Assembly: GCA_000092065.1 (NCBI GenBank)
Contig: CP000584.1
Reading direction: 5' to 3' (one strand)
Source: Ostreococcus lucimarinus
Lineage: Eukaryota
DNA: 64,000 nt
Shown: in pieces, positions 12,559 through 61,503 of the stretch
How positions within the stretch are numbered: position 1 is the first letter of the stretch
How the letters are laid out: every line of letters begins with the position of its first letter
Notes under the pieces: generated by a model
Told to the model about the DNA's origin: nothing
Databases searched by the model: none
The model's input: only the letters and a program-made list of their open reading frames with translations
Position numbers and translations under genes: made by a program

Positions 12559-14031
12559 CTATGTGTACTGATTTCGCTTCGAGAACGCGTCGACGAGGAC
12601 GTTTTGAGGCGTCTGCCATTCGGCGCGCACGAGCGTCTCGACGGTGCGCAACACGTCCTCTGCGCTCGTTTTCGTTGGATCGAGCTGCATCACAGACTTC
12701 ATGTGAGGCAATAAATTGGGATTCCCAGCAAACAAATATTTCACGATGGATTTAATCTTCCCCACCTTGAAGGTCTCGAGCTCTTGCGCCTGGACGCCGC
12801 TCCCGCGCTTGCCGTTTGGTTTATTTTCCGTCTTGAACACCTCCGCCGCGAAAGTTCTTAAAAAGTCAATCACGAGCTCGACTTCGAACTCGCGCTCGAA
12901 GACATCATCGCTCACTCGCACAACTCCTTGAGCGTCCCGCGAGACTGTTGCAGCGATGCGTCGAAAGATTAATGGATCTTGCACCGCCCCGCGACCGAGC
13001 ATGATGCCGTCCGCGTCGCTCACCCTGAGCAATTCAGCGGCGCGTTGCGGACTCGTGACGTCCCCATTCCCGAGCACCGGAATGTCCAAAACATCTTTCG
13101 CGAACGCGATTTCTTCCCAATTCGCTCGACCTGAGTACCCTTGCGCGCGCGTTCTCGCGTGTAGCGACACGAATCTCGCCCCCGCCTCGCGAGCCGCCAG
13201 CAAATTCTCCCGCAACAACGACGAATCGTCGTATCCGCTCCGAAGCTTCATCGTCACGTGCGCGCCGCTTCCTCTCGCCCCATCCGCCACCGCCTTCACG
13301 CACGCGTACACGTACTCGGGATCTCTCAACAGCGACGATCCCGCGCCTTTCCCCGTGACCACGTTCGCCGGGCATCCGCAATTCAAGTCGATTCGCGGCG
13401 CCGATTTCTCCGTCGCCAAATGTCTCGCCGCGAGCTCCAGCAACCACGGTTCGCTCCCCATGATCTGCGCCCCCAGCGGCACGCGCGCCGTCGCGTTGAA
13501 TCTCAACTCATCCGCGTCGTAATTTGCGCACAGATTCTTCACCAATTTCGTCGGATCCGCGCCGTTCGGCAGCGCGCCCGGAATTCTGATAAACTCTCGA
13601 CACGCCTCGTCGAAACCACCGGCGCCGTTCGCCGCGAGCGCGACGCGGAACCGCGCGTCGCCGAGCCCTTCCATCGGCGCCGCGAACGTCGGCACCGCGC
13701 CTCCGCGTCGACCGCGCGCGAACAGCGCGTCGTAGTCGAAGCGCGGCGGCGTCGACGCGCCGTCGGTGGACGCGGCGGCGGCGGCGGCGGCGCGCGTTCG
13801 AGCGTCGCGCGCGCGTCGCGCGCGCGCGCGAGGACGACCGCGCGAGGGCGACGATCGCGGCGCGCGCGAGGACGGCAGGGCGCGCATGCGGGCGCGTCGC
13901 GACGCCGCGCGCGTCGGAGTGTCGATTCGTCTGCCGAGTGTGCTATTTTGGGACGCGCGCGCGCGCGTCACTGCGCGGCGCGCGCGGCGCGTCGACGATC
14001 GAGGGCGGCGACGAGGCTTTAAAATTACCAT
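12559..14031 (-). CDS. tRNA-dihydrouridine synthase (Dus family) with an Arg/Ser-rich N-terminal extension
   Basis: Dus signatures are present: PMEGLGDARFR, IDLNCGCPANVV (catalytic Cys), VTMKLRSGYDD and HARTRAQGYSGRANWEEIA. The first ATG (cat at 14029-14031) overlaps the ATG of the divergent gene on the + strand. The true start may be an internal Met. Confidence 0.8.
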   Translation of the reverse strand: MVILKPRRRPRSSTRRARRAVTRARASQNSTLGRRIDTPTRAASRRARMRALPSSRAPRSSPSRGRPRARARRARDARTRAAAAAAASTDGASTPPRFDYDALFARGRRGGAVPTFAAPMEGLGDARFRVALAANGAGGFDEACREFIRIPGALPNGADPTKLVKNLCANYDADELRFNATARVPLGAQIMGSEPWLLELAARHLATEKSAPRIDLNCGCPANVVTGKGAGSSLLRDPEYVYACVKAVADGARGSGAHVTMKLRSGYDDSSLLRENLLAAREAGARFVSLHARTRAQGYSGRANWEEIAFAKDVLDIPVLGNGDVTSPQRAAELLRVSDADGIMLGRGAVQDPLIFRRIAATVSRDAQGVVRVSDDVFEREFEVELVIDFLRTFAAEVFKTENKPNGKRGSGVQAQELETFKVGKIKSIVKYLFAGNPNLLPHMKSVMQLDPTKTSAEDVLRTVETLVRAEWQTPQNVLVDAFSKRNQYT

Positions 14032-17000
14032 GAACGTCGCGCGCGACCGGCCGACGGTGGCGGAGGCGTACGCGCGCGCGCAGGCGCGCGTGTGCGCGAG
14101 GCTGCAGAGAGAGCAGGAAGTCGCGCGGGCGTCGAGCGCGGTGCGCGCGGTCGACGACGACGCGCGCGCGCGCGACCGCGCGACGGTGGACGTCGTTCGA
14201 GTCGTTGAACGGGGCGAGGGATCGTCGAGGCATCCGCGACGGGTGGCTCGAGAGGAGATCGGCGCGTGGCGGGTGCGCAGACTGGCGACGCGGGACGAGC
14301 GCGCGGCGGCGTACGCGGCGGCGTGCGTCGAACACGGTGCGCGCGTCAGTTCGAGAGTGCTGCGACAGTTGGAGAAAAAGTACGCCGATGTGGCGTCTTC
14401 GGGTCTGGGGTCGAGCGGCGCGAAGGCGATCGCGGCGGGCGTGGCGGAGAACGCGACGATGGAGAGCCTAAACGTGAGTCGGAATCAAATCGACGACGAC
14501 GGAGTCTCTGCGTTGTGCGCCGCGGCCGCGCGCGCGAAGGTTCTGCGGGCGCTGAATTTTAGTGAAAACAAAGTTTCGAGCGCGATCGCGCCCACGTGCG
14601 CGGAAGCGGTGAAAAAAATCAAGGTTTTGAATTTTTCGGCGTGCGGCGTCGACGACGCGTGCGCGACGGCGTTGTTCGCCGCTCTTCGGAGCAACACGTG
14701 CGGACTCGAAAGTTTGAATTTATCAAGGAATAAGTTGACCGATGCGAGTGGTCGATGCATCGGCGACGCCTTGGGCGCGGACATTTCGTTACGAGTTCTC
14801 AACGTGTCCTGGAACGCCATCGGCTCGGAGTGGTGCGCGCACGTGTCGCGCGGTCTGAAGCTGAACACGCGATTAGAATTCTTATCCTTGGCGTGGAACG
14901 GCATCGGTGACGAAGGTGGTAAACACATAGGTGACTCACTGAGCGTCAATCGATCGCTACTGGAGCTCGATTTATCGCGATGTCGATTGGGATGCGACGC
15001 GTCGATGGTCATAAGCGAAGGCTTGCGAACGAACGACGTGTTGACGACACTTCGACTAGATCACAACGCCATGGGCGAAGACGGCGGGCGGCACTTGATG
15101 TCCATGTTACTGGAAAACGATTGTCTCACAGTGCTGACGTGCTCGGGATCTTCTTTCGTGGACGTGCCGAAGAAGAAGAGGAAATCCACCACGAAACACG
15201 GCGTCGCGGCGTTCAATTCGCACAATCCAGACGGCCGATACACGCTAAATCTCGACGACACGGGTGAGCGCGCCATCGCATCAAAGTTGTGGCACTTAGA
15301 AAGCGAGAATCCTGGAAGCATGACGAGCGCTAAAAAGGTTCCTTCGGGTGTGGATGTGCTGGATGATTTCAAGCGCGAAGGCTTGAGCGGCGTCTCGCGC
15401 GGCGTGATCGAGATTCAATTCGTCACGAGCGCAGCGCGTTTGGCGAGACGGCCTGTGGTCATCGAAGACGAAGACTTTGAAAATATCTTGAGGCAACTTC
15501 GAAGCAATCGGCTTTCAGACTTCGAGCGGCTCAGTCGACTCATGCTGTTTTGCCGCAGCTACTACTTTGAAACCTCGCACGCCGCGAAACTTCTAGATAC
15601 CTTTATTCTCGAAGGCACCGATCGCTTACAAGCCGCCTCAGCTATTTACGCGCGCTTACTTGATGCTGAAAACGCTGAGAAGATGTTCACATCGAAGTTT
15701 GAGTTCGAAAAGCTTCGGAACATACTTGGTTCTTACGCACATTTTCGCGCGGCGAATCCCACAGGGCGGTACGATTTAAACTTAGCTGTCGACATAGACA
15801 GAACGATCGCTTCGACGATGATGGACAGCGCAACGTTCGAAGGGCGACGCCGAACGTGGCGAAACGTGCGATTGAATCGGACGCGAATCACGGATGTGAT
15901 GCCGTCAGGTGTTCCCGAGTCGCTCATGCGATGCATGCCAAACGTCGGCACGCTCGAATTCGATTACACGAGCAACATTCGCGCGTCAGAAAGCGCGATG
16001 GCGGAAACCGATGAGAAACTTCACACGTTTCTGCATTCAGTCGCAGTCTTGACCAACTCAACGAGCGAATGGGCGGCCGTGAGATCAGTGAGGGCGCTTT
16101 ACGCTCTTCGCGAGGCTTCGGTGCGCGTGCACGTGAACGCACGTCAATACCAGAGAGTATGCGACGCTTTTCCACCCGGTCCCGATCGCGTAGAGGCGGC
16201 CGTGATCTTATTCAATCGCGTGATCGACCACGCCAACGTACCCGCCGTCGTCGGTCGGTATTCAAGTTTCGAGCAAAGTATTTTTGGCGCTCGCATGGGA
16301 TGGAGAAACGTCCTCGGCGATTCGCCGCAGGCGTTCACGATGCACTACAGACTCGATCTGAACTGCGACGAGCAAGCGAGCGTGGCGAAGCACTTAGTCA
16401 GCGCCGCGGTGCGTGATTACAAAGACGTTCAAGTCATACGTAACGTCACCATCAACGGTCGAAGACTTCCTCGCGATCCCGTCGAGGACGACACCCTTTG
16501 GAGCGTGCTCACCGCCGAATCCTTCACCCCCGTGCTCGAATTCGACTACTTCGGCGCCGACGTCTGGGACGTCGTCCGTCGAGAGTTAAACATCACCGAA
16601 ATCCCCGACGAAAAGCCCGAGCGCGAGGCCGCGCTCAAGCGTCTCGCCTCCCGGCTCGCCTTCCTCCGAGCGTCCACCCTCCAGTGCGCCTGGATCGAGC
16701 TCGCCGCCGCCGACGCCGCCCTCCCTCATCCAACCGGCGACGCCTCGTGGCGCAAATCCTGGCACGAAACCCTCCGAATGATTTGTCGCACCGAGCACTC
16801 CCACAGCTCTAAATCTCCGCTCCGTCTCATCTTCGACTTCCTCGACGCCGACGGTTCCGCCTCCCTCTCCATCGACGAATTCGTCGCCGGCGCCTCGAGC
16901 GCCCTCGGCCGTCCGATCCCTCGCGCTTTGCTCGCGCCGTACTTCGACCCGCGCCACTTCACCGACGACAGGCACTTGGGCGTCGTTTCTTTCGACGTTT

Positions 17001-17032
17001 TCGAGGCGATTTGCGTGGAGAATTTCGCGTGA
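14030..17032 (+). CDS. Ribonuclease-inhibitor-like leucine-rich-repeat protein with a C-terminal EF-hand
   Basis: The ATG at 14030 gives MNVARD. There are about 9 RNI-type LRRs (LNVSRNQIDDDGVSALC..., LNLSRNKLTDASGRCIGDAL..., LSLAWNGIGDEGGKHIGDSL...). A long unique C-terminal region ends with an EF-hand-like loop (DADGSASLSIDEF). The track ORF begins 264 nt further upstream, and that part is Arg-rich and overlaps the Dus gene. Confidence 0.6.
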   Translation: MNVARDRPTVAEAYARAQARVCARLQREQEVARASSAVRAVDDDARARDRATVDVVRVVERGEGSSRHPRRVAREEIGAWRVRRLATRDERAAAYAAACVEHGARVSSRVLRQLEKKYADVASSGLGSSGAKAIAAGVAENATMESLNVSRNQIDDDGVSALCAAAARAKVLRALNFSENKVSSAIAPTCAEAVKKIKVLNFSACGVDDACATALFAALRSNTCGLESLNLSRNKLTDASGRCIGDALGADISLRVLNVSWNAIGSEWCAHVSRGLKLNTRLEFLSLAWNGIGDEGGKHIGDSLSVNRSLLELDLSRCRLGCDASMVISEGLRTNDVLTTLRLDHNAMGEDGGRHLMSMLLENDCLTVLTCSGSSFVDVPKKKRKSTTKHGVAAFNSHNPDGRYTLNLDDTGERAIASKLWHLESENPGSMTSAKKVPSGVDVLDDFKREGLSGVSRGVIEIQFVTSAARLARRPVVIEDEDFENILRQLRSNRLSDFERLSRLMLFCRSYYFETSHAAKLLDTFILEGTDRLQAASAIYARLLDAENAEKMFTSKFEFEKLRNILGSYAHFRAANPTGRYDLNLAVDIDRTIASTMMDSATFEGRRRTWRNVRLNRTRITDVMPSGVPESLMRCMPNVGTLEFDYTSNIRASESAMAETDEKLHTFLHSVAVLTNSTSEWAAVRSVRALYALREASVRVHVNARQYQRVCDAFPPGPDRVEAAVILFNRVIDHANVPAVVGRYSSFEQSIFGARMGWRNVLGDSPQAFTMHYRLDLNCDEQASVAKHLVSAAVRDYKDVQVIRNVTINGRRLPRDPVEDDTLWSVLTAESFTPVLEFDYFGADVWDVVRRELNITEIPDEKPEREAALKRLASRLAFLRASTLQCAWIELAAADAALPHPTGDASWRKSWHETLRMICRTEHSHSSKSPLRLIFDFLDADGSASLSIDEFVAGASSALGRPIPRALLAPYFDPRHFTDDRHLGVVSFDVFEAICVENFA

Positions 17033-48118: not shown

Positions 48119-50869
48119 TTATAAGTCGATCAAGTTGCCGGTGGCGGGTCCAGATGCGTCCGATGGCGGTTGCGAGGACGTCGACGGCGCTGACGGAAAC
48201 GCAGGGGCGAAGAGAGTCCAATTCGGGGTGAAAATTGACGTCTCAGCGGCTTGAACTTCGTGCGCGCGGTACGAGTCGATGAAAGAGGGATGGCATCCCG
48301 CGAGCGCACCGACGAAGGCAACGCGACGGCGTGATGGCTCATCGGCGCTGTCATCAGATTCTGCGAAAAAGCACCGGGCGAAGGTCGCGCACACGGCGGC
48401 GGTGTCGGTGGGCAAACTTGTTTGCGCACGCTCGTCGTCGATGCGCTTGATGAGCGTCGCCGCGTGTGCGAGCGCCGCTCTCGTCTTCCCCGAGACGTGC
48501 TTGTTAAGGACGCTGTTGATGAAATCTCTGGTTGGGAAAGAATCCAGAGGCATGGAGTCCACGACGCTCGTAATTTCTGGCTTTTCCAGCACGCGCTGCG
48601 GGAGCGCGGAGAAGAGCGAGATGAGTGCTTCACCGACGTCGTACGCGTTGCCGCCGATGGCGCTCAGTTTCACCGAATTCGCTCGATTAGTGTGGAATGC
48701 ATTGGCAATCTTCGCAAGTACCCCTCGTGTACGAACATTCTCAAAGGGTACGCGGAAAAGTCCCGGCGCCGCACTCACTTTCTCGTGTAGAAAGTCTACG
48801 AGACTTGTCACGACTTGCGGAACGTTTGGCGGAATCGCCGACGTTGGAAGATCTTCGAAAGGCGTGCCAAACGTGCATGGTTGGTACGTCCCTTGGACAG
48901 AAACGAAAAAATCCCTCCCACCCTCGAGCCTGACGACCAAAATCGCGTCGACATGCTTTGGTTTGGCATCCACGTGTATGAGCGAGTCGTCGCCGTATCT
49001 CGTCAGCGAATCGTGACTAAACGCGCTCGGACCCGACCTTCGTCCACCCCGAACGCATGCGGTGACGTTCAGAATGACTTCCTCACCTGGTAACAAGCTA
49101 CCACTCATCGGGTAGACGGACATCCAACCGGGAGTCGCCGGACCACCCGGTATCGGAGAAACGAGACTGAAGTTGGCCGGGACGTCGCCGACGTTTGAAA
49201 GCCTAAACTTACCGGCCACTTCCTCGGAGTAGCGCAAACGGCCCAAATCGACGCTTGCGTTCTCTATTGCGCATACCGGCATAGACGCCATCTCGACGTG
49301 ATCAAGCTTTCGACGCAAATCGAACAAAAGGCTGTGCAGTTTTTTTGGTTCAAGCTCTCGAACCACTAGCGAAAATACGGCGTACACTGGCTTGTGATCT
49401 GAGTGCGTCAGCTCGGCACGGCCATACTCCAACAGGTTGATATCAAAATCACCGTTCCACAGCACTCGATCGCACCAGGCTGGAGTGCGTTTCTTCTCCT
49501 CCTCTTTTCTCTGAGAGCCGCCAACTTCGTCCAGATCCGCATCGCCCGCTCCGCTATAAATGTTTGTGCCCGGTCTATACTTGTACGTCGGCGCGAAAGT
49601 GACTTCGCTTTCGTGCCATCCTCTAAATGCACGCCCGGCACTGCGTTCGATGTTCAGTTGATCAGACGCCAGTAGGCTCGAATAGTTTCCCGCGGCGATT
49701 GACTTGCGCACGACGTCGTCGGACAACGTCAATCGATAGTTCAAGTCCCCCATCCAGATCGAGCTCGCAGCATCCGCGACGGAATACTCCGACGCATCCG
49801 CGCCTTCGGGCGGCAAAAATCTCAGCTGGTCCATAATTGTGCTATAATCTTCGTTCCGCTTGATTTCATCGCCCGGTTTCGAGCCCGCGCTCAAGTGCGA
49901 GCACACGAAAACCAAAGGCGTGCTGTAAAGTTTCATCCAAACAGCGCACGCACCCTTGTTTCCTAGTATACCGACGCCAATATTAAACCCAGTCGCCACC
50001 GTTCCAACGCGTACGTCTTGGATATGCGGCAGCAGCGATGCCTTCACCCACACGGTTATGTACACGCCGACGAGTTGCTTCTGCGCCACAGGTCTATACT
50101 TCGCGGCGCCCTGTTTCGACTTTGGCGGCCTCCAACTCGAACCCTCACGAATCGCAAAGTCACTTATATCTTCCTCCTCGTCACCACCGTCGAAGGATAC
50201 CCATTTCACCGTCTCGGGCGTTGCTTGCCCCGACGTCGTCGCGAACGACGCCTCCGTCGCGTCGTCGGCGTCAAACTCCGCGGTGTAATCACTCAGCACC
50301 CCGCGTCGCTTCGTCGCCGGCTGATTCGCCGCCGAGCCATTCAACGCCTTATCCAGCACGCGTTCCCACGCCTCCGTCATCGCGCTGTCCTCTCCCACGA
50401 GCACCTTGCCAACGTTGAGCGGGACGATTTCCTGAAAACCAACCGCCACGACGTCCGCCGCGTCGTCGTCGTCCCACGTCCCTCCCTCGCCCTCGTCCAA
50501 CCTCCCGCGATTGCGCACCCACTCCTTGACGTCCGCGTCCGCCCTCGGCGCTTTCCCATTCGTGTTCCACGTCCCCGCGAACACCCGCAGCGGTCGTCGC
50601 TCCGTGTACGCGTCGATGGATTCATTCAAAAACTCTCTCCGCACCGCCGTCGACGCGATCCGCCGTCCCCACTCGCGCGCCAGCGGATGCGCGCGTTCCG
50701 TCGTCGTCGCCGTCGTCGTCGCCGTCGCGCGCGCGTCGTCGCTCGCGCTCGGGCCGTCGAAATCGCGCACCCACGCGCTCGTCGCCTCGCGCGCGCGCTC
50801 GCCGTCTCGCGCGCCGCTCGCGCTTCGCTCGCGCTCGCTCGCCGTCGCGCTCGCGAAGAGCGCGCGCAT
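48119..50869 (-). CDS. Inositol polyphosphate 5-phosphatase (OCRL/INPP5B-like) with a C-terminal ASH/RhoGAP-like region
   Basis: The ATG is confirmed. 5-phosphatase catalytic motifs are present ([34 protein letters not shown]). The RhoGAP-like C-terminus is [22 protein letters not shown]. Confidence 0.85.
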
Positions 50870-51020
50870 CTCGCGAGCGCCGCGCGCGTCGCGCCGCCGT
50901 CGCTCCGCGCGCCGCGCGACCGGTGCGCGCGGCGCAGTGCCGCGCGCGTCACTGCGCCGCGTCGAATCCGACGACGACGACGACGACGACGCGCGGCGAC
51001 GACGCGCGACGACGCGCGCG

Positions 51021-51029
51021 ACATGTCCG
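51021..51029 (+). CDS. VTI1: Putative 9-nt first exon (ATG TCC GCG) of the Vti1 gene, speculative
   Basis: The Vti1 reading frame has no in-frame ATG before the conserved IFESYEREF. The sequence ATGTCCGCG|gtgcgcgcg...gacgcag|ATATTC would give MSA-IFESYEREF using a 204-nt GT..AG intron. The donor type GTGCG is the same as in the verified SmD1 intron. Confidence 0.25.
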
Positions 51030-51233
51030 CGGTGCGCGCGCGACGCGACGCGACGCGCCTCGGACGCGCGCGACGGCGCGCGACGGCGCGAGAAGACGCG
51101 CGAGACGTTCGCGACGGCGCCGCCGACGACGCGACGACGACGCGCCGACGACGCGACGCGACGGGACGCGACGCGACGGGACGGGAGAGAGAGACTGACG
51201 ACGACGACCGCGACGCGACGGACGCGGACGCAG

Positions 51234-51902
51234 ATATTCGAGAGCTACGAGCGGGAGTTTTGCGAGTTCTCGAGCTCGATCCACCGAGGCGTCGACGGCG
51301 TGAAGACGGCGGCGGACGCGACGACGCGAGGACGACACGCGAAAGCGATCGAGGCGGATGTGGCGGAGTGCGAGGCGTTGGTGCGAAGGATGGATCTCGA
51401 GGCGCGGTCGGTGAGCGATCCGGCGGTGAAGACGCCGATGTTGAATAAGCTGAGGGACTATAAGAGCGAGTTGGCGAAGCTGAAGCGAGACGCGCGAGAG
51501 GCGAGCGCCAAAGCGGCGGAGACGGACGCGCGAGACGAGTTGTTGAACACGGCTGAGCGTGGAAACGCCGCGGGGGCGTCGGACGGGGGGATGTCCGGAC
51601 AGGCGATGGAGACGACCGAACGGTTGGCGCGCACGGGCGAGCGCATTAAAGATAGCCGCCGGTCGCTGCTGGAGACGGAGGACTTGGGCGTGAGCATTCT
51701 GCAAGACTTACAGGGACAGCGGGAAACCATCGAGCGAAGCCGCGAAGCGCTGCACGGCGCGGATGACACGATCGGGCGGTCGAGAAAGATCCTCAGCAAC
51801 ATGAGTCGTCGCGCGCAGGCAAACAAGTTTGCGTTTTACGGCGTGAGCGCGTTACTCTTCATCGCCATCTTGACCGTCATCGTGCATCGATGGAGTCGTT
51901 GA
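51234..51902 (+). CDS. VTI1: Vesicle transport v-SNARE Vti1 (Qb-SNARE), main exon
   Basis: The N-terminal Habc-like region is IFESYEREFCEF. The Qb-SNARE motif LLETEDLGVSILQDLQGQRETIERSREALHGADDTIGRSRKILSNMSRR is followed by a TM anchor FAFYGVSALLFIAILTVIV. The stop is at 51900-51902. Confidence 0.75.
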   Translation: MFESYEREFCEFSSSIHRGVDGVKTAADATTRGRHAKAIEADVAECEALVRRMDLEARSVSDPAVKTPMLNKLRDYKSELAKLKRDAREASAKAAETDARDELLNTAERGNAAGASDGGMSGQAMETTERLARTGERIKDSRRSLLETEDLGVSILQDLQGQRETIERSREALHGADDTIGRSRKILSNMSRRAQANKFAFYGVSALLFIAILTVIVHRWSR

Positions 51903-51957: not shown

Positions 51958-52878
51958 CTACGCATCGTCGTCGGCGCTTTTATCGACTGAAAAGTCGGCG
52001 ATTTCGCTGACGAGATATATTCTTCCTTTGCCCGTCACGCGCCAAGGCGACGTCTCTCGACGTTCAAACTGCGTTTCGAACACGATTTTCCTACCACACA
52101 CGTGGCACTCCGTGCGTTCTCGCGCCTGCCCTCGCCGTACGGGTAAAAACGCGTACACATCCTCGTGACACGCCGGACACTCACCCGTCATCGCGAGCGT
52201 CTCGCCCGTCGACGCCGCGTTCAACTTTTCCAGTCCGCGCGAAATCAAACCTAATCCCACCAAGCCAACGATCGGGACGCGAAACTGCGGCACATTAGGC
52301 CCGTGATCACCGAGCACGACCGAAAAAACCGCGCGCAAGTCGTCCCCGAAATCCACCAACGCGAAGAGCGTCCCCAGCGCCAAAATCGCCAGGTACGACG
52401 TCTGCAGCGCGCGCATCTGCGCCTCATCCACCACGCAATCCGAATACACCGCCTTCCCGCGCACCGAGCACCGCGGATACTTTTTCACCACCCCACTCCC
52501 CGCGTACGACAACTTCGCCTCCAGCGCATCGAAATATTCATCGCTCACCGCCGGCGCGCCCGTAAAGTACTTCTCCTTGCACGCCACGTACAGCGTCTCC
52601 AACTCCTCTTGCGTCGCCGCGTCGAGGTTTTCGATCACCGCGATCGACGACGACGCCTCCGCCTCCGCGTCCGCGTTCGCTTCACCGTCCGCGTCTCGTC
52701 CGTTCGCCTCGCGCGCGACGCACCGCGCGTCCGCGTCCGCGTCCCGCTCGAGTCGTCGTTTCGCACCCTTTCGCGTCGTTCGCGTCCGCGTCCGCGTCGT
52801 TCGCGTCGCGACGCCCGCGCGCCGGCGCGGACGCGTCGTCGTCGCCGTCGTCGTCGTCGCGCGCGCGCCGAGCGTCAT
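51958..52878 (-). CDS. PGRL1: PGR5-like protein 1 (PGRL1), a thylakoid cyclic-electron-flow component, plastid precursor
   Basis: The match to PGRL1 runs through KKYPRCSVRGKAVYSDCVVD (plant GPRCSLRSKKVYSD). There are two TM helices, and C-terminal Cys pairs GECPACHEDVYAF ... TECHVCGRKIVFE (plant CPNCG ... CTNCG). The start was placed at the internal Met of the Thr/Arg-rich presequence. A TGTAA lies 15 nt after the stop. Confidence 0.8.
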   Translation of the reverse strand: MTLGARATTTTATTTRPRRRAGVATRTTRTRTRTTRKGAKRRLERDADADARCVAREANGRDADGEANADAEAEASSSIAVIENLDAATQEELETLYVACKEKYFTGAPAVSDEYFDALEAKLSYAGSGVVKKYPRCSVRGKAVYSDCVVDEAQMRALQTSYLAILALGTLFALVDFGDDLRAVFSVVLGDHGPNVPQFRVPIVGLVGLGLISRGLEKLNAASTGETLAMTGECPACHEDVYAFLPVRRGQARERTECHVCGRKIVFETQFERRETSPWRVTGKGRIYLVSEIADFSVDKSADDDA

Positions 52879-53073
52879 CGCCGACGTCGCGCGACCGCGC
52901 GCGCGCGCGTGCCGTCGCGTTCGTATGGCGCGCAGTGAGAAACGGTTTTTCGACACCCGGGATGCCGCAGACGCGCGCGCGCTGGGTCGACGACGACGAC
53001 GATGACGACGCGAACGGAACGTCGCCGACGTGGATTCGATGATTCGGTCGAACGTTCGGCGCGCGCGCGCGCG

Positions 53074-56000
53074 ATGTGGACGCGCGCGAGCGCCGCCGGC
53101 GCGATGGTTTCGCTCGCGATGGCGAGCGGGACGGCCGTCGCGTACACGGCGGGGACGGCGTGTTACCCCGAAGCGGCGTGCGAGTCGGGCGGAAGCAACA
53201 CGTTCGATAAATACCAGCGAAGAGTGTGTCAAATGCTCGCGGACACGAGCAAGTATTGCATCATCCCGAGCGAACCGACGGACGAATTGAGTGGGTGTTC
53301 GCGCGAGCTGCTGTATCACGGTTGGTGCGACGCGAACAAGTACGTCTTTGAATCGGGATGTTTGGCCAAACATCCGACGACGGATTCTTCGGCGTGCTCG
53401 AATTGCAATTTCGATTCGTATCCGACAGCGTATTGGAGCGTGGGGGCGCCATATCCTCTACACCCTGGAATGGTTAATCACGCTTTCCGAGAGTGCGTGG
53501 TCGATTACGTCAAGGCGAAGATCGAAGAAGGTTTTGCCGCTGAAGGTATGACCGCGGATGCGACATCGCTTCAGCAGCTCGCAGAGCAAGAATTTCCGGT
53601 GGAACAAATGGTGGACGTTGACGATTACAAAGAGCAGTATTCAAGTTATTACTTAGATGATGGAGACTTCGACGAGTTGGACGAAGAGATGACCGATGAA
53701 CACCTCGACGACGTCTCCGGATCCGTTGACGAAAGCGTCATGACGAAGACAGTAACGGCTTCGTGCTCTTCGCCCTCAGACGACAAAATCTGCTACAAAA
53801 TGTGCGCTGGTGACCTCGGTCTTAATCTCGAGTATAAGATCAAGGTGCCGAAAGTCTGCGCTAAAATCAAAATTCTCGGGAAGAAGTTTAAGAAATGCAT
53901 CAGAGTCCCGACGACGAAGTTTAAAATTCCAAACAAGTGCACGAACTTGTGCGTCAATATTCCAGGTTACTGCGAGATGCAAGAAGCGGCGAGTGCGATT
54001 ACACAGATAAAGAACATCAGATCACTCGGTGATTTGGCATTACCCTGCAAAACACTGGGTGGGCCGGGCGATGTCTGTAATCTGCTCGAAGAAGCCGACG
54101 ACGCGTTTAGAGCGATGGAGTCGATGGCGAAAATAGCCACGACGTCAACGGTCGACGCCTTTCTCGATCTGCGAGTGTTACCGTCGATATTGCAAAACGT
54201 CCTCGACGAAGCTACGGACGCTTTGGAGGACATCGCCAACGGCCTCGAAAATAAACTCCGCAACTTGGTGGAACATGTCTGGGGTACGGTTGCGAGCTCG
54301 TCGTCCGAAGTCGTATCGTTCATCGAAAATAACGTCAAGGGTTCAATATGCGCATCGTCGAGTTCCACGGCATCGCTCGGAGCCGCGCGCGAAGAGCGAC
54401 GACTCGCCCTCGTAAATGACATTCATCGCGGCGTGCGCGCTGCGTTCCGGGGCGACTCGACTCCGACGCACTCAGCGCGTCCAATCGTTCCTAATCTAGG
54501 CGCTGGGCAGTGTTGCTATCACATCCCGTTCGCGTGTAGCAGCGAGGTGGATTTCCCAATGCCTTGGCCGAAGGCCTTGGAGAATATATCGGACTCACCG
54601 GGTGCCGTCGTTGTGAACATGCCGGGCCTGGAATTCAACATCTGTGGCGAGATCACGCAGTTTAAGGTGGACGAGAAAGTTGCGACGAAACTGGTGAATG
54701 CTTTTGGTGATATGTTCGAAGCGCTCTTTGCAGCACTTTACGAAGAGAGCGGACTGAAAAAAGTCGTGGATGACGTGAAAGATCTGACAAAGGACATGTT
54801 TGGGTCGTCGGCGGCGCTCGGATCGTATGATCGACCGTCTTTCTCCACCGACGACCGCAAACATCTGTTGAGGAAATACGTCGAAGTCAAAAACCGGATG
54901 GCAGAGACGGAGACAATCGTTCTGGAGGAACTTTTGAAAATATCTGACACCATTCATTCGCCCGAATACTTGACGCATACAACACGGACGCCGTCGCGCG
55001 ATGACGTGCCGTCTCTGGGCGGCGAGAACTTGTTCGAAAAGGTCCTGAATGATTTCGCCGACGATTTGCAGACGGCTCTTAAATCTATGGCAGACACGAC
55101 AGTCGTGAAGGCGGATATGTCAATCAACGTGAAAGGAGACACGTCCATCAATGCGAAGGCGAGCGTCTACAAGATCGGCGACATCATCGACAAGCTCGAT
55201 ATTCCAAATAGCTTTGCGGGCGTCCACGTCGCCCCTCTGTTTCCCGGTTTAACCGCGGCGCTTCAATACGACGTGTTGCTTTCGATGCCATATTACGTCA
55301 ACATCGACATGGAGGCATCTTTTGCCTTGGGTCTCGATATCGATATCCCGATATCTCTCGAACTTTCGAATACACCAAACTTCGCCATGGGCTCGCCCGC
55401 CGTGAACTTGGTTCCGACGTACACCGCAGCCGGTAAGTCGAGCGCGCAGGTAGGCGCGAGTGTTGAGATAAAGAAAGGCTGGATAGCGCTGTGCGCGGGG
55501 ACTCACTGCGTCGGCCCATGGATCAAAGCGCGCCAAGACGTCTACGTCGGGGTCGACACCTGGGCTTTCGCCAACTGCGACTCGGGATATGGCGAGCTCG
55601 TGCCAAAATGGACCGACGGATTCTCTTATTCGAGCAAAAATCAAGCAGCATGCGCAGGTTCACTCGCAGGCGCTGGTGGCTACGCGCAAGTGCCGAAGAC
55701 GGGCAATATTCTCGCTCAGGTACTGTTCGCCCCCATGCCGATCATGCCCTCGGGCGCGAGCGCCGCCTCGCAATCCGCGGCGCGTCTCGGCGACGACGAC
55801 GACGAGTGCGAGGCTCAGCCAATGGGTATGATACTGGCCGATTACACCAACACCGTGCATAACGCCGTCATGGCGGGCGGCGATAACTGGTACACGACGG
55901 ATTTGTTTGCCGAGTGCCCGTCCGCGGGCAAGTGCCCCGCGCCGTCACCGCCGCAACCGTACACGCCAACGGCGAACACAAAGCTTGCCAAGTACAACGC

Positions 56001-56394
56001 CCGGTGCTGCGGCAACTCCGGCGATTCGCGCTGCGCCGCAGCGATCGAAGGTACGTACGAAACGCTCTGCGCCCAGCTCTGCGACGCCTGCGCGGGTTGT
56101 GTCGCCTTCGACTACCAAGCCAGCAAGAACAAATGCGGCTTCAGCAAAAGCGATAGCACGGAGGACCGGGTGGGATTCACGCACTTCGGTCACGGCGCGA
56201 CGCCCGCGTCCAAATCTTCCCTCGGCTCTCGCATGCGTTTCAGCGCGCGCGCGTCGTCGCCAACGTCACCATCCGCGCTCACCGCCGTCTTCGTCGTCGC
56301 CTTCGCCGCCGCCTTCGCCTCGGCCGCGTTTCGCCGCCGCCGCCTCGACGACGCTCGCCGCGCGCGCGTCGACGATTACGGCGCGTTCGACTGA
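53074..56394 (+). CDS. Large hypothetical Cys-rich secreted protein with a C-terminal membrane anchor; codon-usage outlier
   Basis: The ATG at 53074 gives the signal peptide [23 protein letters not shown]. There are over 60 Cys in clusters. A PAN/apple-like Cys pattern occurs near the C-terminus ([37 protein letters not shown]...C). The final hydrophobic stretch [18 protein letters not shown] is followed by RRRR. The region is visibly more AT-rich at third codon positions than its neighbours. Confidence 0.6.
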
Positions 56395-56735
56395 TCGACG
56401 CGTCCCTCCGGCGCGTCTCGCGCTCGAGCGTTCGAGTCGATCATCGCTCCACTCATCTCTGTATTTTCTCATATTTCCTCACATTTTCTCCATCGCGCGC
56501 CTCCCCGCCGTGTCGCGCGTCGCGCTCGGCCCGGTTCGCTGGGCGCGGTCGCCGCCGGCGCGATTCTGGATTTTGGATTCTCGTTTCGCCGCACTCGTCG
56601 TCGCGCTTTGCCGCGCGCACCGACGCGCGCGCCCGAGAACGAGCGCGGCTCGAGAACGCGGACGCGCACCGACGCCGTCGCGCGAACGTCGCGCGCGCGG
56701 TGCGCGTCGACGACGCTCGAAGGCGACGCGACGCC

Positions 56736-56826
56736 ATGAAGCTCGTGCGGTTTTTGCAGAAACTCTCCAACGAAAGCGTGACGATAGAGCTCAAGAACGG
56801 CACCACGGCGCACGGGACGATCATGG
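56736..56826 (+). CDS. SMD1: Small nuclear ribonucleoprotein SmD1, exon 1
   Basis: The sequence [31 protein letters not shown] matches SmD1 ([31 protein letters not shown]). The reading frame collapses right after this point unless it is spliced. Confidence 0.85.
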
Positions 56827-57045
56827 GTGCGTGCACGATGACGACGACGGCGCGCGACGCGCGAGGACGACGCGCGAGGACGAACGAGAGAAGCGCGAAT
56901 GCGAAACGCGGGAAACGCGGCGACGATCGGGACGCGGCGAGAAGACTCGACGGGAGACGAGACGCGAGAGGGACGAGACGCAGGGCGAGCGACGCGAGCG
57001 AAGACTGACGAGCGCGAAAATCACGGCGTCGCGCGCGATCGACAG
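56827..57045 (+). other. SMD1: Spliceosomal intron of SmD1 (219 nt, phase 1, GTGCGTG...GACAG)
   Basis: Joining 56826 to 57046 restores the exact SmD1 sequence ...HGTIMG|[18 protein letters not shown]... with GT/AG boundaries. Confidence 0.8.
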
Positions 57046-57299
57046 GCGTGGACGTGAGCATGAACACGCACCTGAAGCAGGTGAAGCTCACGCTCAAGGG
57101 TAAAAACCCGACGGCGGTCGAACACCTGAGCGTTCGAGGGAACACGATTCGGTATTACATCCTTCCGGACTCTTTGAATCTGGACACTTTGTTAGTAGAC
57201 GACACGCCCAAGCAAGGGAAACCGCGCGCGAAGGCGGCGGCGAGCGCCGGTCGAGGGCGCGGTCGCGGTCGAGGGCGCGGGCGCGCGCGGCCGACGTAG
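57046..57299 (+). CDS. SMD1: SmD1 exon 2, the Sm fold remainder plus a C-terminal (RG)n tail
   Basis: The sequence [54 protein letters not shown]...[16 protein letters not shown] is the Sm2 motif and the RG-repeat tail typical of SmD1. Confidence 0.85.
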
Positions 57300-57512
57300 T
57301 CGGTCCGCCGTCGGCGTCCGAGCGCGTAGTCGCCGCGTCGCGCGCGATTCGACGTCGAGCGCGCCGTCGCGCCGCAGTTGTTTGTTTTATACGATATCCA
57401 GCGATTAGATAGATCTCCGTCGCCGCGTCGACCTCGTCGCGTCCGTCGTCGCCGCGTCGACTTTCAATTTCAAACCGACCGAACCGACAGGTGGCGCCAT
57501 TCCGCGACGCCC

Positions 57513-58289
57513 ATGCCCGCGTCCGCGCGCGCGCTCGAGCGCGCGCGCGCGGCCGTCGAACTCGACGTCGCGCGAGACTTCCCCGCCGCCGCGCGCGCGT
57601 ACAGAGACGCCGCGGCGGCGCTCGACGCCGACGCCGACGCCGACGCCGACGGCGCCGATGGATTGCGACGGAAAGCGCGCGAATACCGCGCGCGCGCGGA
57701 CGAATTAGAGGCGACGACGCGCGAGACGACGGTTGATTACACCTCGCTCGTCGGCGTCGCGAGCGGGGCGGCGCGCGCGAAGACGACGATGGAGACGAAG
57801 ACGCGCGACGCCGGCGGCGCGCGCGTCGTCGGCGGCGCCGCCGCGGTCGGCGCGTGCGCGGGATTCGCGTTGCTCGGACCGGTGAGCGCCGTCGTCGGCG
57901 CGGGGGCGATGGCATACGGCACGACGCGGCGCGACGGCGTCGGGAGCGCGTGCTCGGGGGCGGGAAAGATGGCGGCGAACGCGTACTCGAGCGTGAAGAG
58001 ATGGAATCGCGAGCACGCCGTCACGACGAAAGCCGCCGCCGCGTGCGCGACGGGCGCCAAGGCGGTGAAAAAGCTGGACGACGAGTATAAGATACGCGAG
58101 AAGACGGCCAAGGCGGTGACCGGCACCGCGAGGGCGGCGAGCGAATTTAACGAAAAGCACGGCGTGACGAAGAAAATCGGCGAGGGCGTCTCCGTCGGTC
58201 TCGACGTCGTGACGAAGAAGCTCGGCGGCGTCGACGCGCGCGACGAGGCGTCGAGCGAGGGCGCGCGTTTGCCATCCGCGCCGCGTTGA
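57513..58289 (+). CDS. Hypothetical MIT-domain-like protein with a Gly/Ala-rich C-terminal half
   Basis: The ATG is at 57513. An N-terminal three-helix MIT-like region (ARALERARAAVELDVARDFPAAARAYRDAAAAL...RRKAREYRARADEL) is followed by low-complexity and hydrophobic sequence. Homology assignment is weak. Confidence 0.4.
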   Translation: MPASARALERARAAVELDVARDFPAAARAYRDAAAALDADADADADGADGLRRKAREYRARADELEATTRETTVDYTSLVGVASGAARAKTTMETKTRDAGGARVVGGAAAVGACAGFALLGPVSAVVGAGAMAYGTTRRDGVGSACSGAGKMAANAYSSVKRWNREHAVTTKAAAACATGAKAVKKLDDEYKIREKTAKAVTGTARAASEFNEKHGVTKKIGEGVSVGLDVVTKKLGGVDARDEASSEGARLPSAPR

Positions 58290-58438
58290 TCGCGCCTAGC
58301 GTCCTTGTACATTTACATCACACCGCACGACTCGCAGTCGCCTCGGCGTCGACAGTCTGACGGGACAGTTACGACGGTTACTCCGCACAGTCGCGCGCTC
58401 GCGCCGCGCGCGACGCGCGAGCGCGAGCGCGACGAGCG

Positions 58439-58483
<45 letters not shown>

Positions 58484-58680
58484 GCGCGCGCGACGCGACG
58501 ACGATGCGTTCGCGCGCGGAGAGGACGGCGCGGCGGTCGAGACGACGCGAGACGACGAGACGACGCGCGGCGGCGGCGTGGCCGGACGACGCGCGCGCGA
58601 AGACGCTGTTCACGGCGCGGGGCTCGCGCGAAAAACCGACGCGGTACGATTATCGGAGTCGAGTGCGAGGCGTGGTGGGG

Positions 58681-61503
58681 ATGGAAAAGTTTAGCGACGA
58701 CGAGTTGGACTCGGCGAGCGAATCGGAGGAAGAGTGGCTCGTCGACGAGGACGACGACGAGGCGAGCGGAGGCGACGATGAAAGGCGGAGCGGAAGCGAC
58801 GACGAAGATGGTGAGGAGGATGACGACGACGGTGTTCGTGCGGTCCGTCGACGAAGGCGGATGAAAGCTTCGAATCCATTCGAATCGGACGACGACGACG
58901 ACGGTGTTCGTGCGGTCCGTCGACGAAGGCGGATGAAAGCTTCGAATCCATTCGAATCGGACGACGACGACGACGACGACGACGACGATTTCAAGCCGAT
59001 TCGTAAACGTAGAAGAGTGTCGACGAAGAGACAAAAGGACGAAGAAAAAACCGTGAGAGTCGAGACGCCGCGACGCGCGAGCACACGAGTGGGCGCGAGG
59101 GCGAAACGAAAAGCGGCCGACGCGGCGAGACACGTCTCTTCATTGTTGCGTCCAACGATGGATGTGGACGACGAATCAATCGTCGAGGACGACGCGTCGT
59201 CTTCGGATTCTTCCGAATTGGATTTTGTCGTCGACGACGACGAGGACGAGACTGCGACTGAAGTTGACTTCACGCCTCGAAGAACCCGGCTGAGTCTGGG
59301 ATCGAGCGTTGACGAGGCTCTGAGCATCGACGACGTCGCAGCGTTGAAACGCGCTCTCTCACGTCTAGAGGAGACACCTCGACCGGGTCGCGTGCTCATC
59401 TCCGCGGCCGCGCACAACGCCATAAACGTAGCGAGCGAGTTCTTGGCGAATGGTATTCGAGTAAATGGTCAGTTGAACGAGAGGGGATCCAAGAAACCGC
59501 ACATCACGGACATCGCCGACGCGCTTCACATCGCGTGCGAACGAGGCAACGTGGATTTCGTTCACGCCGTGAGGGACCAAATCGGATTGGCGCAGTTCTG
59601 TCGAGGTGGTGACACCGGCGGTTGGCCGACCTCAGCGACGGGCGGCACACTCGTCCATTCGGCGGCGGATAACGAAAAAGCGAGCGCGGAGTGCGTTGCA
59701 GCGGCGATTATGGCGGAGTCACCACCGAAAGGGCGCGTCATGCCCGTGGCTGCGGTGTTCGACGAAGACGCTCGCGGCGCACGCACGCCGTTGATGATCG
59801 CTGCGGGTGCAGGTCCCGAGTGGGGGTCTTGCGTTGAAGCGCTCTTGAGGGATGCCAGAACATACGGCCAACGCGCAGTGCGAATCGCGATACGATGTCA
59901 AGAGCCACAAGAAGGATGTTCTGCGGTGCACATCGCCGCCGTCGCCGGAAATGTGGTTTGTTTGGAGAAATTTCTAAAGGAAGATCCATCGTGCTTAAAG
60001 GTGAAAGACTACAACGATTCGACGCCATTGCATTGGGCATCTATGGAAGGACGGCACGAGACGATCCGAGTGTTGCTCGAGAAGGGCGCCAACAGACTAG
60101 CGATTGACAAAATGGGTTGGATTCCGTTGCTCTACGCCAATTTTCACGAAAAGAGTGAGGCAGTTTTATACTTGCTCGAGAAACAAGTCTCGGAGCAATT
60201 GCAGACCATGTTCACTGCGGTGGCATCGGAGGACGATGGGAAGTCCAAGTTGCAGGTACAAAAGGTTTTGAATTTGCTCGCAGCCAAACCAGCGTACTAC
60301 GATGCGATAAACAACTGCATCAGGAGAGACATGTCGCTCTTGGGCCCTGTCATGAACATGCTGCGCGAATGTGGAGCGATTACTATTATCAATTTGGCCA
60401 ACCGCGTGTCGTTCTTGCGCAATACGTGGCTCAATGAATATGGATTGCAAAATTTAGCTCTCTCGAAAAGTTTCACCTTGTCTGCGCAAGACGCTTGGCA
60501 CGACTTTTTCGTAAATGTCTGGTCCGTCTCGCCAAAGATTTTGAAGATTCGACATCTCAGTTGGGGCTTGCGGCAGCCATCGGGGGATGTTTCAGTAGGT
60601 CCGGGACCAACGCGTGAAGCGTTCAGCTTGATGGCGAACGAGTTGTGCGATGGAAACAGAGCCGACCGCCAGCTATTTACACAGGATGACGCGCGCACGT
60701 ACAAACGTAAGGAAGGTATCGACCGCCCGAGCGTGCTGAAAGAGCTCCAGTGTTTCGGCGAACTTCTGGCGCACGTGGTGCTCTTCGGCAGCGCCGTTTT
60801 ACCGATTCCGTTCTCCAAAGTCTTCCTGAGGCGCGTCATCGCCAACGAAAAATGTGACGCGTTCACTCTAGACGATCTCGCCGACGTTGAGCCCGCAGTG
60901 GTGAAGTCGATCAAGGTTGTGCTTGAAACCGACGACGTCGAATCGCTCTGTCTCACGTTTATCGATCCGACGACGAACGAAGAGACAGACGTCACGAAGG
61001 CAAACTTGCAAGCATTCAAGCGACAAAAAATTCGCGAAATGGTGTCGAGCATCGTAGACGACGCATCCGTGCACGCGATCCGCACAGGTTTGCTCCAAAT
61101 CATGCGAAAATCACAGATCGAGGTGCTGGCGCCCGAAGAGTTTGGCCTCGTCGCCGCCGGCTCGCAATCGATCGACCCCAAGGAATGGCGCCGACACGCC
61201 TCCTTCTCACCAAGTCCAGAGATGGAATGGTTTTGGGACGTGGTCGAACGCATGAACAACGACGACAAATCTCGTCTCCTCCAATTCTCCACCGGGAGTA
61301 GTTTACTTCCGGTCGGTTCTTTCGCCGCGCTGTGTCCTCCGTGGAGCATCGAAGTCGGTCTTCACCGCGACGCCAGTAAGCTCCCCACCGCCTGGACGTG
61401 CTTCAACACGCTTCAAATGCCGCGCTACCCATCGAAAGAATTGCTCGAAGAGCGCTTGTTTTGCGCGCTGCGCCACGGAAGCGCTGGATTCGCCTTTGCG
61501 TGA
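58681..61503 (+). CDS. HECT-type E3 ubiquitin ligase with ankyrin repeats and an acidic repeat-containing N-terminus
   Basis: The ATG at 58681 gives MEKFSDDELD. There are ankyrin repeats (TPLMIAAGAG..., SAVHIAAVAGNVVCLEKFL, TPLHWASMEGRHETIRVLLEKGAN). The C-terminal HECT domain ends LPTAWTCFNTLQMPRYPSKELLEERLFCALRHGSAGFAFA, which contains the catalytic Cys. A TGTAA lies 36 nt after the stop. Confidence 0.85.
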   Translation: MEKFSDDELDSASESEEEWLVDEDDDEASGGDDERRSGSDDEDGEEDDDDGVRAVRRRRRMKASNPFESDDDDDGVRAVRRRRRMKASNPFESDDDDDDDDDDFKPIRKRRRVSTKRQKDEEKTVRVETPRRASTRVGARAKRKAADAARHVSSLLRPTMDVDDESIVEDDASSSDSSELDFVVDDDEDETATEVDFTPRRTRLSLGSSVDEALSIDDVAALKRALSRLEETPRPGRVLISAAAHNAINVASEFLANGIRVNGQLNERGSKKPHITDIADALHIACERGNVDFVHAVRDQIGLAQFCRGGDTGGWPTSATGGTLVHSAADNEKASAECVAAAIMAESPPKGRVMPVAAVFDEDARGARTPLMIAAGAGPEWGSCVEALLRDARTYGQRAVRIAIRCQEPQEGCSAVHIAAVAGNVVCLEKFLKEDPSCLKVKDYNDSTPLHWASMEGRHETIRVLLEKGANRLAIDKMGWIPLLYANFHEKSEAVLYLLEKQVSEQLQTMFTAVASEDDGKSKLQVQKVLNLLAAKPAYYDAINNCIRRDMSLLGPVMNMLRECGAITIINLANRVSFLRNTWLNEYGLQNLALSKSFTLSAQDAWHDFFVNVWSVSPKILKIRHLSWGLRQPSGDVSVGPGPTREAFSLMANELCDGNRADRQLFTQDDARTYKRKEGIDRPSVLKELQCFGELLAHVVLFGSAVLPIPFSKVFLRRVIANEKCDAFTLDDLADVEPAVVKSIKVVLETDDVESLCLTFIDPTTNEETDVTKANLQAFKRQKIREMVSSIVDDASVHAIRTGLLQIMRKSQIEVLAPEEFGLVAAGSQSIDPKEWRRHASFSPSPEMEWFWDVVERMNNDDKSRLLQFSTGSSLLPVGSFAALCPPWSIEVGLHRDASKLPTAWTCFNTLQMPRYPSKELLEERLFCALRHGSAGFAFA
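58832..58975. repeat. Perfect 72-bp tandem duplication (2 copies) inside the HECT ligase N-terminal coding region, preceded by a (GACGACGGC)n 9-mer run (12-nt period) at 58440-58480
   Basis: ggtgttcgtgcggtccgtcgacgaaggcggatgaaagcttcgaatccattcgaatcggacgacgacgacgac is repeated exactly. It encodes GVRAVRRRRRMKASNPFESDDDDD twice. Confidence 0.85.

Follow-up and report, generated by a model that had tools for sequence, protein, structure and literature searches.

An Ostreococcus-centred family of cysteine-rich, putative membrane proteins: a fast-evolving member of ordinary codon composition in Ostreococcus lucimarinus

In a 64,000-nucleotide stretch of the green alga Ostreococcus lucimarinus (GenBank assembly GCA_000092065.1, contig CP000584.1; hereafter the window), a large intron-less open reading frame (ORF), the target of this study, encodes a cysteine-rich protein that shares single features with several described systems. 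With PAN/apple proteins (PF00024) it shares a PAN-like cysteine spacing in a C-terminal module of ~70 amino acids (aa), but there is only one such module, which makes up ~6% of the protein, and the remainder is unrelated. Class I viral glycoproteins and glycoproteins processed by site-1 protease (S1P), such as coronavirus spike S2 and arenavirus GPC, resemble it in the predicted type I layout and helix-rich ectodomain, and the RRLL site of arenavirus GPC recurs in a putatively exposed loop of the relatives of the target. RRLL is the canonical recognition sequence of S1P (S1P/SKI-1) and of plant S1P-type subtilases. The target itself, however, has no RRLL, shows no significant similarity to class I fusion glycoproteins in sequence or fold, and has no demonstrated fusion peptide or pair of heptad repeats. 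In comparison with HAP2/GCS1, the target is likewise a cysteine-rich, single-pass ectodomain protein of similar size from a green alga, but it has neither a HAP2-GCS1 match in Pfam nor a class II fusogen among its fold matches. Finally, the resemblance to JlpA, porins, lipovitellin/MTP and pore-state β-toxins is generic, with non-significant scores, high root mean square deviations, short alignments and no sequence similarity.

The target belongs instead to an uncharacterised multigene family, centred on Ostreococcus, with a conserved core. Its homologues in this genus share the ectodomain core at profile E-values from 1e-22 (the cluster of XP_022839997.1) to 0 (the orthologues) and have conserved cysteines, x-L-G loop motifs and a cytosolic YGA-type motif in common with it. 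Many paralogues differ in being of predicted type II topology, with the anchor at the N-terminus, and in carrying other distal modules, either a ricin-type lectin or three C-terminal repeats of ~110 aa. The overall reading that we favour, with moderate confidence, is that of a functional gene of ordinary composition for a type I, cysteine-rich membrane protein of this family, with a possible recognition role at the surface or in the endomembrane system. The gene was already annotated, so far without a function, and its family was previously undescribed; new here are the evolutionary rate, the slot that the gene occupies in the genome and the motifs of the protein.

The gene and its family

The ORF, which the preliminary description of this DNA had given as encoding 1107 aa, is uninterrupted and specifies 1106 aa plus a stop codon. 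Exact-sequence look-up showed that its product is identical to the annotated "predicted protein" XP_001417232.1 (ABO95525.1; UniRef A4RVZ2) of O. lucimarinus CCE9901. Use of an in-frame ATG upstream, at 53002, would give an alternative product of 1130 aa; we prefer the start at 53074 because the orthologue with 83% identity (P0002) begins with MWTRAS at the equivalent position. The reading frame is intact over about 1100 codons in every orthologue, and the ORF is a real, conserved nuclear gene.

No homologue had been recognised when the sequence was first described, but databases hold many. A word-indexed search returned nine orthologue clusters, all of proteins of 1100–1200 aa, at 99%, 83%, 60% and, for the remaining six, 41–44% identity to the target. 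The 99% cluster consists of 187 near-identical environmental sequences, many of them full length, whose variants form two haplotype groups with 0–3 and about 15 differences from the reference, respectively. A profile search of 1.84 billion representative sequences recovered 49 proteins with E-values no higher than 1e-3, including 22 that reached 1e-30 or lower, with the best-matching stretches at profile positions ~400–930; when the word-indexed search was repeated with the 31-sequence alignment, it gave nothing beyond the nine orthologues. All family members with an organism name are from Ostreococcus: XP_022839709.1 of O. tauri is a member of one of the 41% clusters, XP_003082227.2 and XP_022839997.1 of the same species are distant paralogues, and a transcript of Ostreococcus sp. 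RCC789 (MMETSP0929) is a further named member. The others are found on marine metagenome contigs, some of which carry eukaryotic, Mamiellales-like neighbouring genes, or in one MMETSP transcript. Two pattern scans of IMG/VR viral contigs, with subfamily motifs and with core motifs, detected no relatives, and the constellation that would mark a donor lineage, with the closest relatives outside and no vertical orthologues, was not found. The family is vertically inherited and, as far as names go, lineage-restricted, which agrees with the earlier suggestion of a lineage-specific protein; named relatives are confined to Ostreococcus, and the target is a cysteine-rich, putatively single-pass protein with a PAN-like module. 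The scale-associated role that had also been suggested is unlikely, as Ostreococcus cells are naked, lacking scales, yet the genus has several family members.

In the paralogues P0056, P0057 and P0060, three tandem modules of ~110 aa (W-x-D-x-G-I ... S-G-x-M-S-W ... L-H-x-A-G-H-A) follow the core, and a Pfam scan with this repeat module of type II paralogues gave no match.

Predicted architecture, loop motifs and cytosolic tail

The features of the target and of its immediate surroundings are collected in Table 1. The N-terminus is Ala-rich and hydrophobic, with visible n-, h- and c-regions and A-V-A at −3/−1, and looks like the signal peptide previously reported. Equally in agreement with the preliminary description, the hydrophobic anchor is single and directly followed by RRRR, and the dozens of clustered cysteines amount to 40 (3.6%) in five clusters, at aa 30–141, 231–335, 480–524, 807–860 and 912–1021. 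All nine orthologues have this layout, a single predicted C-terminal transmembrane helix flanked by positive charges towards the cytosol, and they also keep an N-x-S/T sequon at N504 (N-I-S). Eight of the ten cysteines of the N-terminal domain (C30, C36, C52, C62, C75, C85, C96 and C141) are invariant in the nine orthologues; a Pfam scan of this domain (aa 26–150) found no match. Judged by these sequence features, the target appears to be a type I, disulfide-rich, single-pass membrane protein of the secretory pathway.

The membrane-proximal PAN/apple-like module is present, as had been claimed, but in the target itself it stays below the Pfam gathering threshold of PAN_1, which is 21.4 bits: the target scores 18.3 bits (E = 0.0021) and P0002 16.8 bits, and P0003 gives no match. 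Two orthologues, P0004 (22.9 bits) and P0005 (23.3 bits), exceed the threshold with the same module, and it is missing from the orthologues P0006–P0009. Cysteines 978/979, 987, 999, 1003, 1006, 1009 and 1021 are kept in the five module-bearing orthologues; the module lies outside the confident part of the structural model.

Table 1. Features of the target gene and its surroundings (window coordinates)
Feature	Position	Strand	Basis
Coding sequence, intron-less, complete; 1106 aa + stop	53074..56394	+	ORF list and exact-sequence look-up
Putative signal peptide, aa 1–23 (...AVA, then YT)	53074..53142	+	Read from sequence
N-terminal Cys-rich domain, aa 26–150, 10 Cys	53149..53523	+	Orthologue alignment
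Acidic linker, aa 151–235, 25 D/E	53524..53778	+	Segment composition; low model confidence
Lys/Cys-rich β-hairpin module, aa 236–300	53779..53973	+	Peptide kept across orthologues; strands predicted
Family-wide ectodomain core, aa ~380–950	54211..55923	+	Profile search, 31-sequence alignment, AlphaFold2 model
PAN/apple-like module, aa 961–1030	55954..56163	+	PAN_1 score and orthologue alignment
Single transmembrane helix (predicted), aa 1068–1086	56275..56331	+	Hydropathy peak 2.23
Cytosolic tail (predicted), 20 aa, with YGA(F) motif at 56377–56388	56332..56391	+	Orthologue alignment
x-L-G loop motif, first copy, ASLGA (L435 G436)	54370–54384	+	31-sequence alignment
Further x-L-G copies	54490–54504, 54811–54825, 55009–55023, 55780–55794, 56215–56229	+	Sequence coordinates
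SmD1 (LSM), two exons: exon 1 56736–56826, intron 56827–57045, exon 2 57046–57299	56736..57299	+	
Segment specific to the lucimarinus clade, ~3.9 kb	52852..56735	.	Synteny tables and tblastn

An AlphaFold2 model of aa 236–960, built from a 33-sequence alignment, predicts two helical regions besides a small hairpin module, and a large sheet (aa ~676–890) in which the hairpins are very long and the strands, as read from the sequence, alternate polar and hydrophobic residues. C481, C524, C807, C812, C835, C860 and C948 are conserved in at least 90% of the 31 aligned sequences, at a mean column identity of 16%; they would fit a disulfide-bonded luminal or extracellular domain. Known families gave little to compare this core with. 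Pfam returned nothing significant for the whole target, and the scattered coiled-coil-type Pfam matches (DUF948, Baculo_PEP_C, Apolipoprotein and others), each in 1–3 of the 31 members, were judged compositional. A PDB sequence search with the target alone had no match; with the family profile, the sole PDB matches at E <= 0.01 were to the heptad repeat 1 (HR1) region of coronavirus spike, and these were rejected, the whole-sequence E-value of 1.2e-3 breaking down into per-stretch values of 0.36–4.6 with heavy gaps. Foldseek comparison of the core model (a 725-residue query) with the PDB and with the BFVD predicted viral structures yielded nothing significant.

Such a combination of helical bundles and hairpins raises the question of whether the target is membrane-active, that is, a fusogen or pore-former whose bundles and hairpins, once primed by proteolysis, would change their arrangement, for instance when gametes fuse. 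The type I topology and the helix-rich ectodomain would suit such a function, as would the long β-hairpins with their polar/hydrophobic alternation and the conservation of protease-like loop motifs (see below), and the best non-significant matches included spike HR1, pore-state β-toxins and MakA. Nevertheless, we consider a fusogen or pore-former unlikely, because the spike matches fail inspection, hydropathy shows no fusion-peptide-like segment besides the anchor, and Pfam offers no HAP2 match (none to HAP2-GCS1 at E <= 1). Fold matches contained no class II fusogen, similarity to the HR1/HR2 core of class I fusion subunits was found by neither sequence nor fold, and of β pore-forming toxins and MACPF proteins only LukGH, C9 and the membrane attack complex appeared, at E = 0.4–1 and with TM-scores <=0.14. 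The long strands could alternatively form an open amphipathic β-sheet like those of lipovitellin, MTP, LolA and JlpA, which would make the core a module for binding lipid or another hydrophobic ligand. We regard this as very unlikely, since all scores lie below the level that is usually meaningful for a query of 725 residues, and porins and TonB-dependent receptors score equally, the common signal being long antiparallel strands.

Short [small]-x-L-G-[small] motifs recur at fixed places in the family. Conservation in the 31 sequences is at least 90% for L435/G436, L475/G476 and L648/G649; L905/G906 and G1051 are invariant among the orthologues, and a Leu precedes G1051 in every row of the alignment. 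LG dipeptides number 11 in the target against 5.5 +/- 2.1 in shuffled sequences. In the model the motifs are predicted to lie in or beside low-confidence loops at aa 428–433, 472–477, 578–589, 634–651 and 893–912 (model residues 193–198, 237–242, 343–354, 399–416 and 658–677), and one copy is always found in the juxtamembrane stalk, which precedes the C-terminal anchor of type I members and follows the N-terminal anchor of type II members. The loop at aa 578–589 (54805–54840 of the window) contains R-[RK]-L-L in nearly all family members, including P0004–P0009 and the distant paralogues. This motif resembles an S1P/subtilase site. It is replaced in the target, P0002 and P0003, all three of which have ...AALGS... 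directly upstream of the lost position; the target accordingly shows no S1P/subtilase motif (R-x-hydrophobic-L) in this loop, which has low model confidence.

A second short motif is found on the cytosolic side. All nine type I orthologues end with Y-G-[AS] within their last five residues, Y1102 and G1103 being invariant; the target reads YGAF, and elsewhere the fourth residue is F/V/L or A/S/C, or the protein ends there. Among the type II paralogues (in the series P0053–P0075), seven carry YGA in the first 27 residues of the N-terminal cytosolic tail and four others YA[SA] in the first 12; E-x-x-x-L-[LIV] is a further motif of several of these tails. That the motif is kept on the cytosolic side in both topologies suggests an adaptor-dependent sorting signal, and the YGA-Φ tail motif of the target looks like one of the tyrosine-based kind.

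Codon composition, evolutionary rate and candidate role

The preliminary description had singled the gene out for a G+C content at third codon positions (GC3) clearly below that of its neighbours. Among 27 window genes, defined from long ORFs and Pfam matches, the target has a GC3 of 0.680 against a mean of 0.761 (standard deviation (SD) 0.066) of the other genes, which corresponds to z = −1.22 and the fifth lowest rank. The claim holds only with respect to three short adjacent genes (Vti1, 0.805; the CPXG-like gene, 0.762; MIT, 0.880) and not window-wide. HECT (0.656), DHX8 (0.658), GCP (0.671) and CSC1 (0.676) all lie below the target, so that CSC1, DHX8 and HECT, to which a milder shift had been attributed, are at least equally shifted. 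GC3 drops strongly with gene length in the 27 genes (Spearman −0.74, p = 9e-6), and for this reason any long gene here looks AT-shifted by eye; a log-length fit predicts 0.705 for the target, leaving a residual of −0.54 SD, and GC at four-fold sites agrees with this result. Short genes of the window reach GC3 values of 0.88–0.92, and genes of ~1000 codons have 0.66–0.79.

The AT-rich stretch cited earlier (53820–54010) falls within the Lys/Cys-rich hairpin module. It has GC1 0.36, GC2 0.34 and GC3 0.59 (G+C at the first, second and third codon positions) and codes for a Lys/Ile/Asn/Phe-rich peptide that every orthologue has conserved; the encoded amino acids account for most of the AT-richness of the stretch. 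Of the AT-ending codons said to fill the ORF, AAA and AAT are indeed raised relative to the pooled other genes, together with ATA and TAT, but TTT and GAT are not, and ATT is relatively rarer. The orthologues on four other contigs have GC3 values within the normal range of their own neighbours, and this ordinary composition in their own contexts counts against an anomaly. GC3 and GC of the target are not significantly below those of the surrounding genes. The compositional anomaly is therefore not real: the composition of the target is ordinary for a long gene. With a target that is no outlier, orthologues that are ordinary and 61% GC over the entire window, composition gives no hint of foreign acquisition. 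The optimal codons of O. tauri are nearly all G/C-ending, and its codon bias increases with expression (PMC3673656). The reduced GC3 is sufficiently explained as the usual, weaker codon bias of a long and probably modestly expressed gene; low expression, one of the explanations proposed earlier, is thus the ordinary reading of fewer G/C-ending codons and is in line with PMC3673656.

A distinctive property of the gene is its rate. Eight syntenic gene pairs were compared with a close sister metagenome lineage, at synonymous divergences (dS) of 0.06–0.18, and the target had the highest non-synonymous divergence (dN 0.095) and the highest dN/dS (0.635), the other pairs ranging from 0.022 (DHX8) to 0.578 (MIT); this bears out the earlier label of a fast-evolving protein. 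By domain, dN/dS was 1.6 in the PAN-like module, 1.06 in the β domain and 0.18–0.58 elsewhere, from small counts for which we do not claim significance. Values at the top of the block overall and of ~1 or more in the β domain, the PAN-like module and the tail, as well as the loss of R-[RK]-L-L from the subgroup of the target, would be expected if the gene were decaying under relaxed selection, which would account for both weak codon bias and fast evolution. We think this improbable, given that the target (1106 codons) and every orthologue have an unbroken frame, that the 99% cluster alone holds so many near-identical, often full-length sequences, that invariance extends to most cysteines, the x-L-G motifs and the YGA tail, and that dN/dS is 0.2–0.6 in most domains.

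If the gene is functional, as we favour, its product could be built on a core of ~570 residues, made of helical bundles and a large amphipathic β-sheet, that is ringed by lineage-variable binding modules; in the target these would be the N-terminal Cys-rich domain, the Lys/Cys-rich hairpin module and the membrane-proximal PAN/apple-like module. The protein would reach the cell surface and cycle via endosomal compartments through its tail motif, and it may be cut or shed at the x-L-G motifs of the loops and of the juxtamembrane stalk, the S1P/subtilase-like R-[RK]-L-L site having presumably been lost in the subgroup of the target. It might then serve in recognition or adhesion, as a receptor with exposed modules that evolve under constraint of a diversifying or relaxed kind. 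A function as a recognition receptor is, in our assessment, a tentative proposal.

Several points weigh against the reading of the target as a type I membrane protein with a recognition role. Signal peptide and topology are read from the sequence. The core model is of moderate confidence only (predicted local distance difference test (pLDDT) score 69, predicted TM-score 0.52; pLDDT 75–86 in the β region), and a full-length AlphaFold2 model from nine sequences (pLDDT 45) was too poor for use. The proposals of sorting and cleavage draw on general cell biology, and such short motifs may be structural. An overall dN/dS below 1 fits relaxed constraint as well as diversifying selection. Deeper divergence is unexceptional, too: the target is 61.5% identical to its orthologue in lineage L006, and the neighbour counterparts in lineages L008 and L009 show 57% (5-phosphatase), 53% (CSC1) and 36% (HECT, in L009), these being contigs, and perhaps lineages, different from L006. 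As to function, a literature search by accession number found no paper naming the gene product. Titles and abstracts on the PAN domain in Ostreococcus or Micromonas and on HAP2 in Ostreococcus contained nothing relevant to the target protein.

To our knowledge, neither a virus receptor nor a mating machinery has been described in Ostreococcus. It is conceivable, if rather doubtful, that the family constitutes an undescribed surface system of the Ostreococcus clade with a new fold, in which a proteolytically processed, adaptor-sorted ectodomain mediates prasinovirus attachment or gamete recognition or fusion. Were that so, rapid evolution, swappable lectin-like modules and repeated relocation within a genome that is otherwise syntenic would be the footprint of an arms race. 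A large, fast-evolving putative membrane family that has a conserved core, variable modules, conserved motifs in its loops and on the cytosolic side, and no recognisable relatives is in any case a reasonable candidate for tests in O. tauri, a species in which genes can be targeted.

The locus and its neighbours

The window has 61.1% GC, and its ORFs are densely packed and mostly intron-less. In the sister lineage the 83% orthologue is fully syntenic with the target, within the series CSC1, DHX8, 5-phosphatase, Vti1, CPXG-like, target, SmD1, MIT, HECT and SMN. Synteny of the orthologues is nevertheless not general, since two related lineages have no such gene in this slot and the other homologues are placed elsewhere. 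Lineages L008 and L009, which were recovered with the adjacent CPXG-like gene as probe, both keep CSC1, DHX8, 5-phosphatase, Vti1 and the CPXG-like gene; L009 also has MIT, HECT and SMN, and the L008 contig ends just past SmD1. In both, the CPXG-like gene and SmD1 stand head to head, ~180–250 bp apart (L008 1119–1301; L009 9747–10001), and tblastn found no trace of the target between them. The 60% orthologue adjoins DUF789, homeodomain, TPR and OTU genes, none of which occurs in the window, and the O. tauri-type homologue and three others each lie in another, different neighbourhood. L008 and L009 lie closer to one another than either does to the window, so that an insertion in the lucimarinus clade is as parsimonious as a loss in the other two lineages; relocation is favoured by the variety of contexts in which the homologues are found. 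A search for transposon termini and target-site duplications flanking the target found only low-complexity, CG-rich repeats. The lineage-specific occupancy of the CPXG-SmD1 slot is a clean, small case of probable gene relocation in a compact genome.

The empty slot, along with a GC3 below that of the three short adjacent genes, might also be taken to mean that the target is a recent acquisition from a viral or other foreign donor whose composition it has retained. The GC3 value is explained by the length trend, with four window genes lower still. Homologues at 83%, 60% and 41–44% identity and distant paralogues are spread across related picoalgae, three O. tauri proteins included; neither the two pattern scans of IMG/VR viral contigs nor the predicted viral structures yielded a relative; and the 83% orthologue sits in full synteny. 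We consequently consider such an acquisition extremely improbable. Of the recent acquisition suggested earlier, what stands in part is a possible arrival at this locus by relocation within the lineage, with no foreign, compositional or viral sign.

What appears to be a 1.1-kb gene-free gap 3' of the target holds SmD1, a gene that ORF scanning misses and that delimits the target locus on its downstream side. Splice reconstruction gives it an intron of 219 nt (GT..AG) and a Pfam LSM match at E = 4e-17, and the gene stands out, when the window is aligned with the sister lineage L003, through two blocks that hardly vary. Further along, the region encoding the N-terminal part of the HECT/ankyrin gene contains a 72-nt tandem repeat (58782–58975, + strand; 2.7 copies, 85% match), which codes for the duplicated peptide DDDDGVRAVRRRRRMKASNPFESDDDD.

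Intergenic DNA and gene ends in the window consist of CG-rich low-complexity sequence, (CGN)n with 65–70% GC, for instance at 50689–51231, 52795–52909 and 58392–58508. These repeats create long, Arg-rich, spurious ORFs in more than one frame as well as overlapping ORF calls, examples being 50018–51448, 56453–57145 and 57094–57915. At the other end of the window, the longest ORFs of a Dus-like gene (12559–14031, − strand) and an LRR gene (13886–17032, + strand) share 146 bp where their 5' ends meet, and the true start codons are therefore probably located further downstream.

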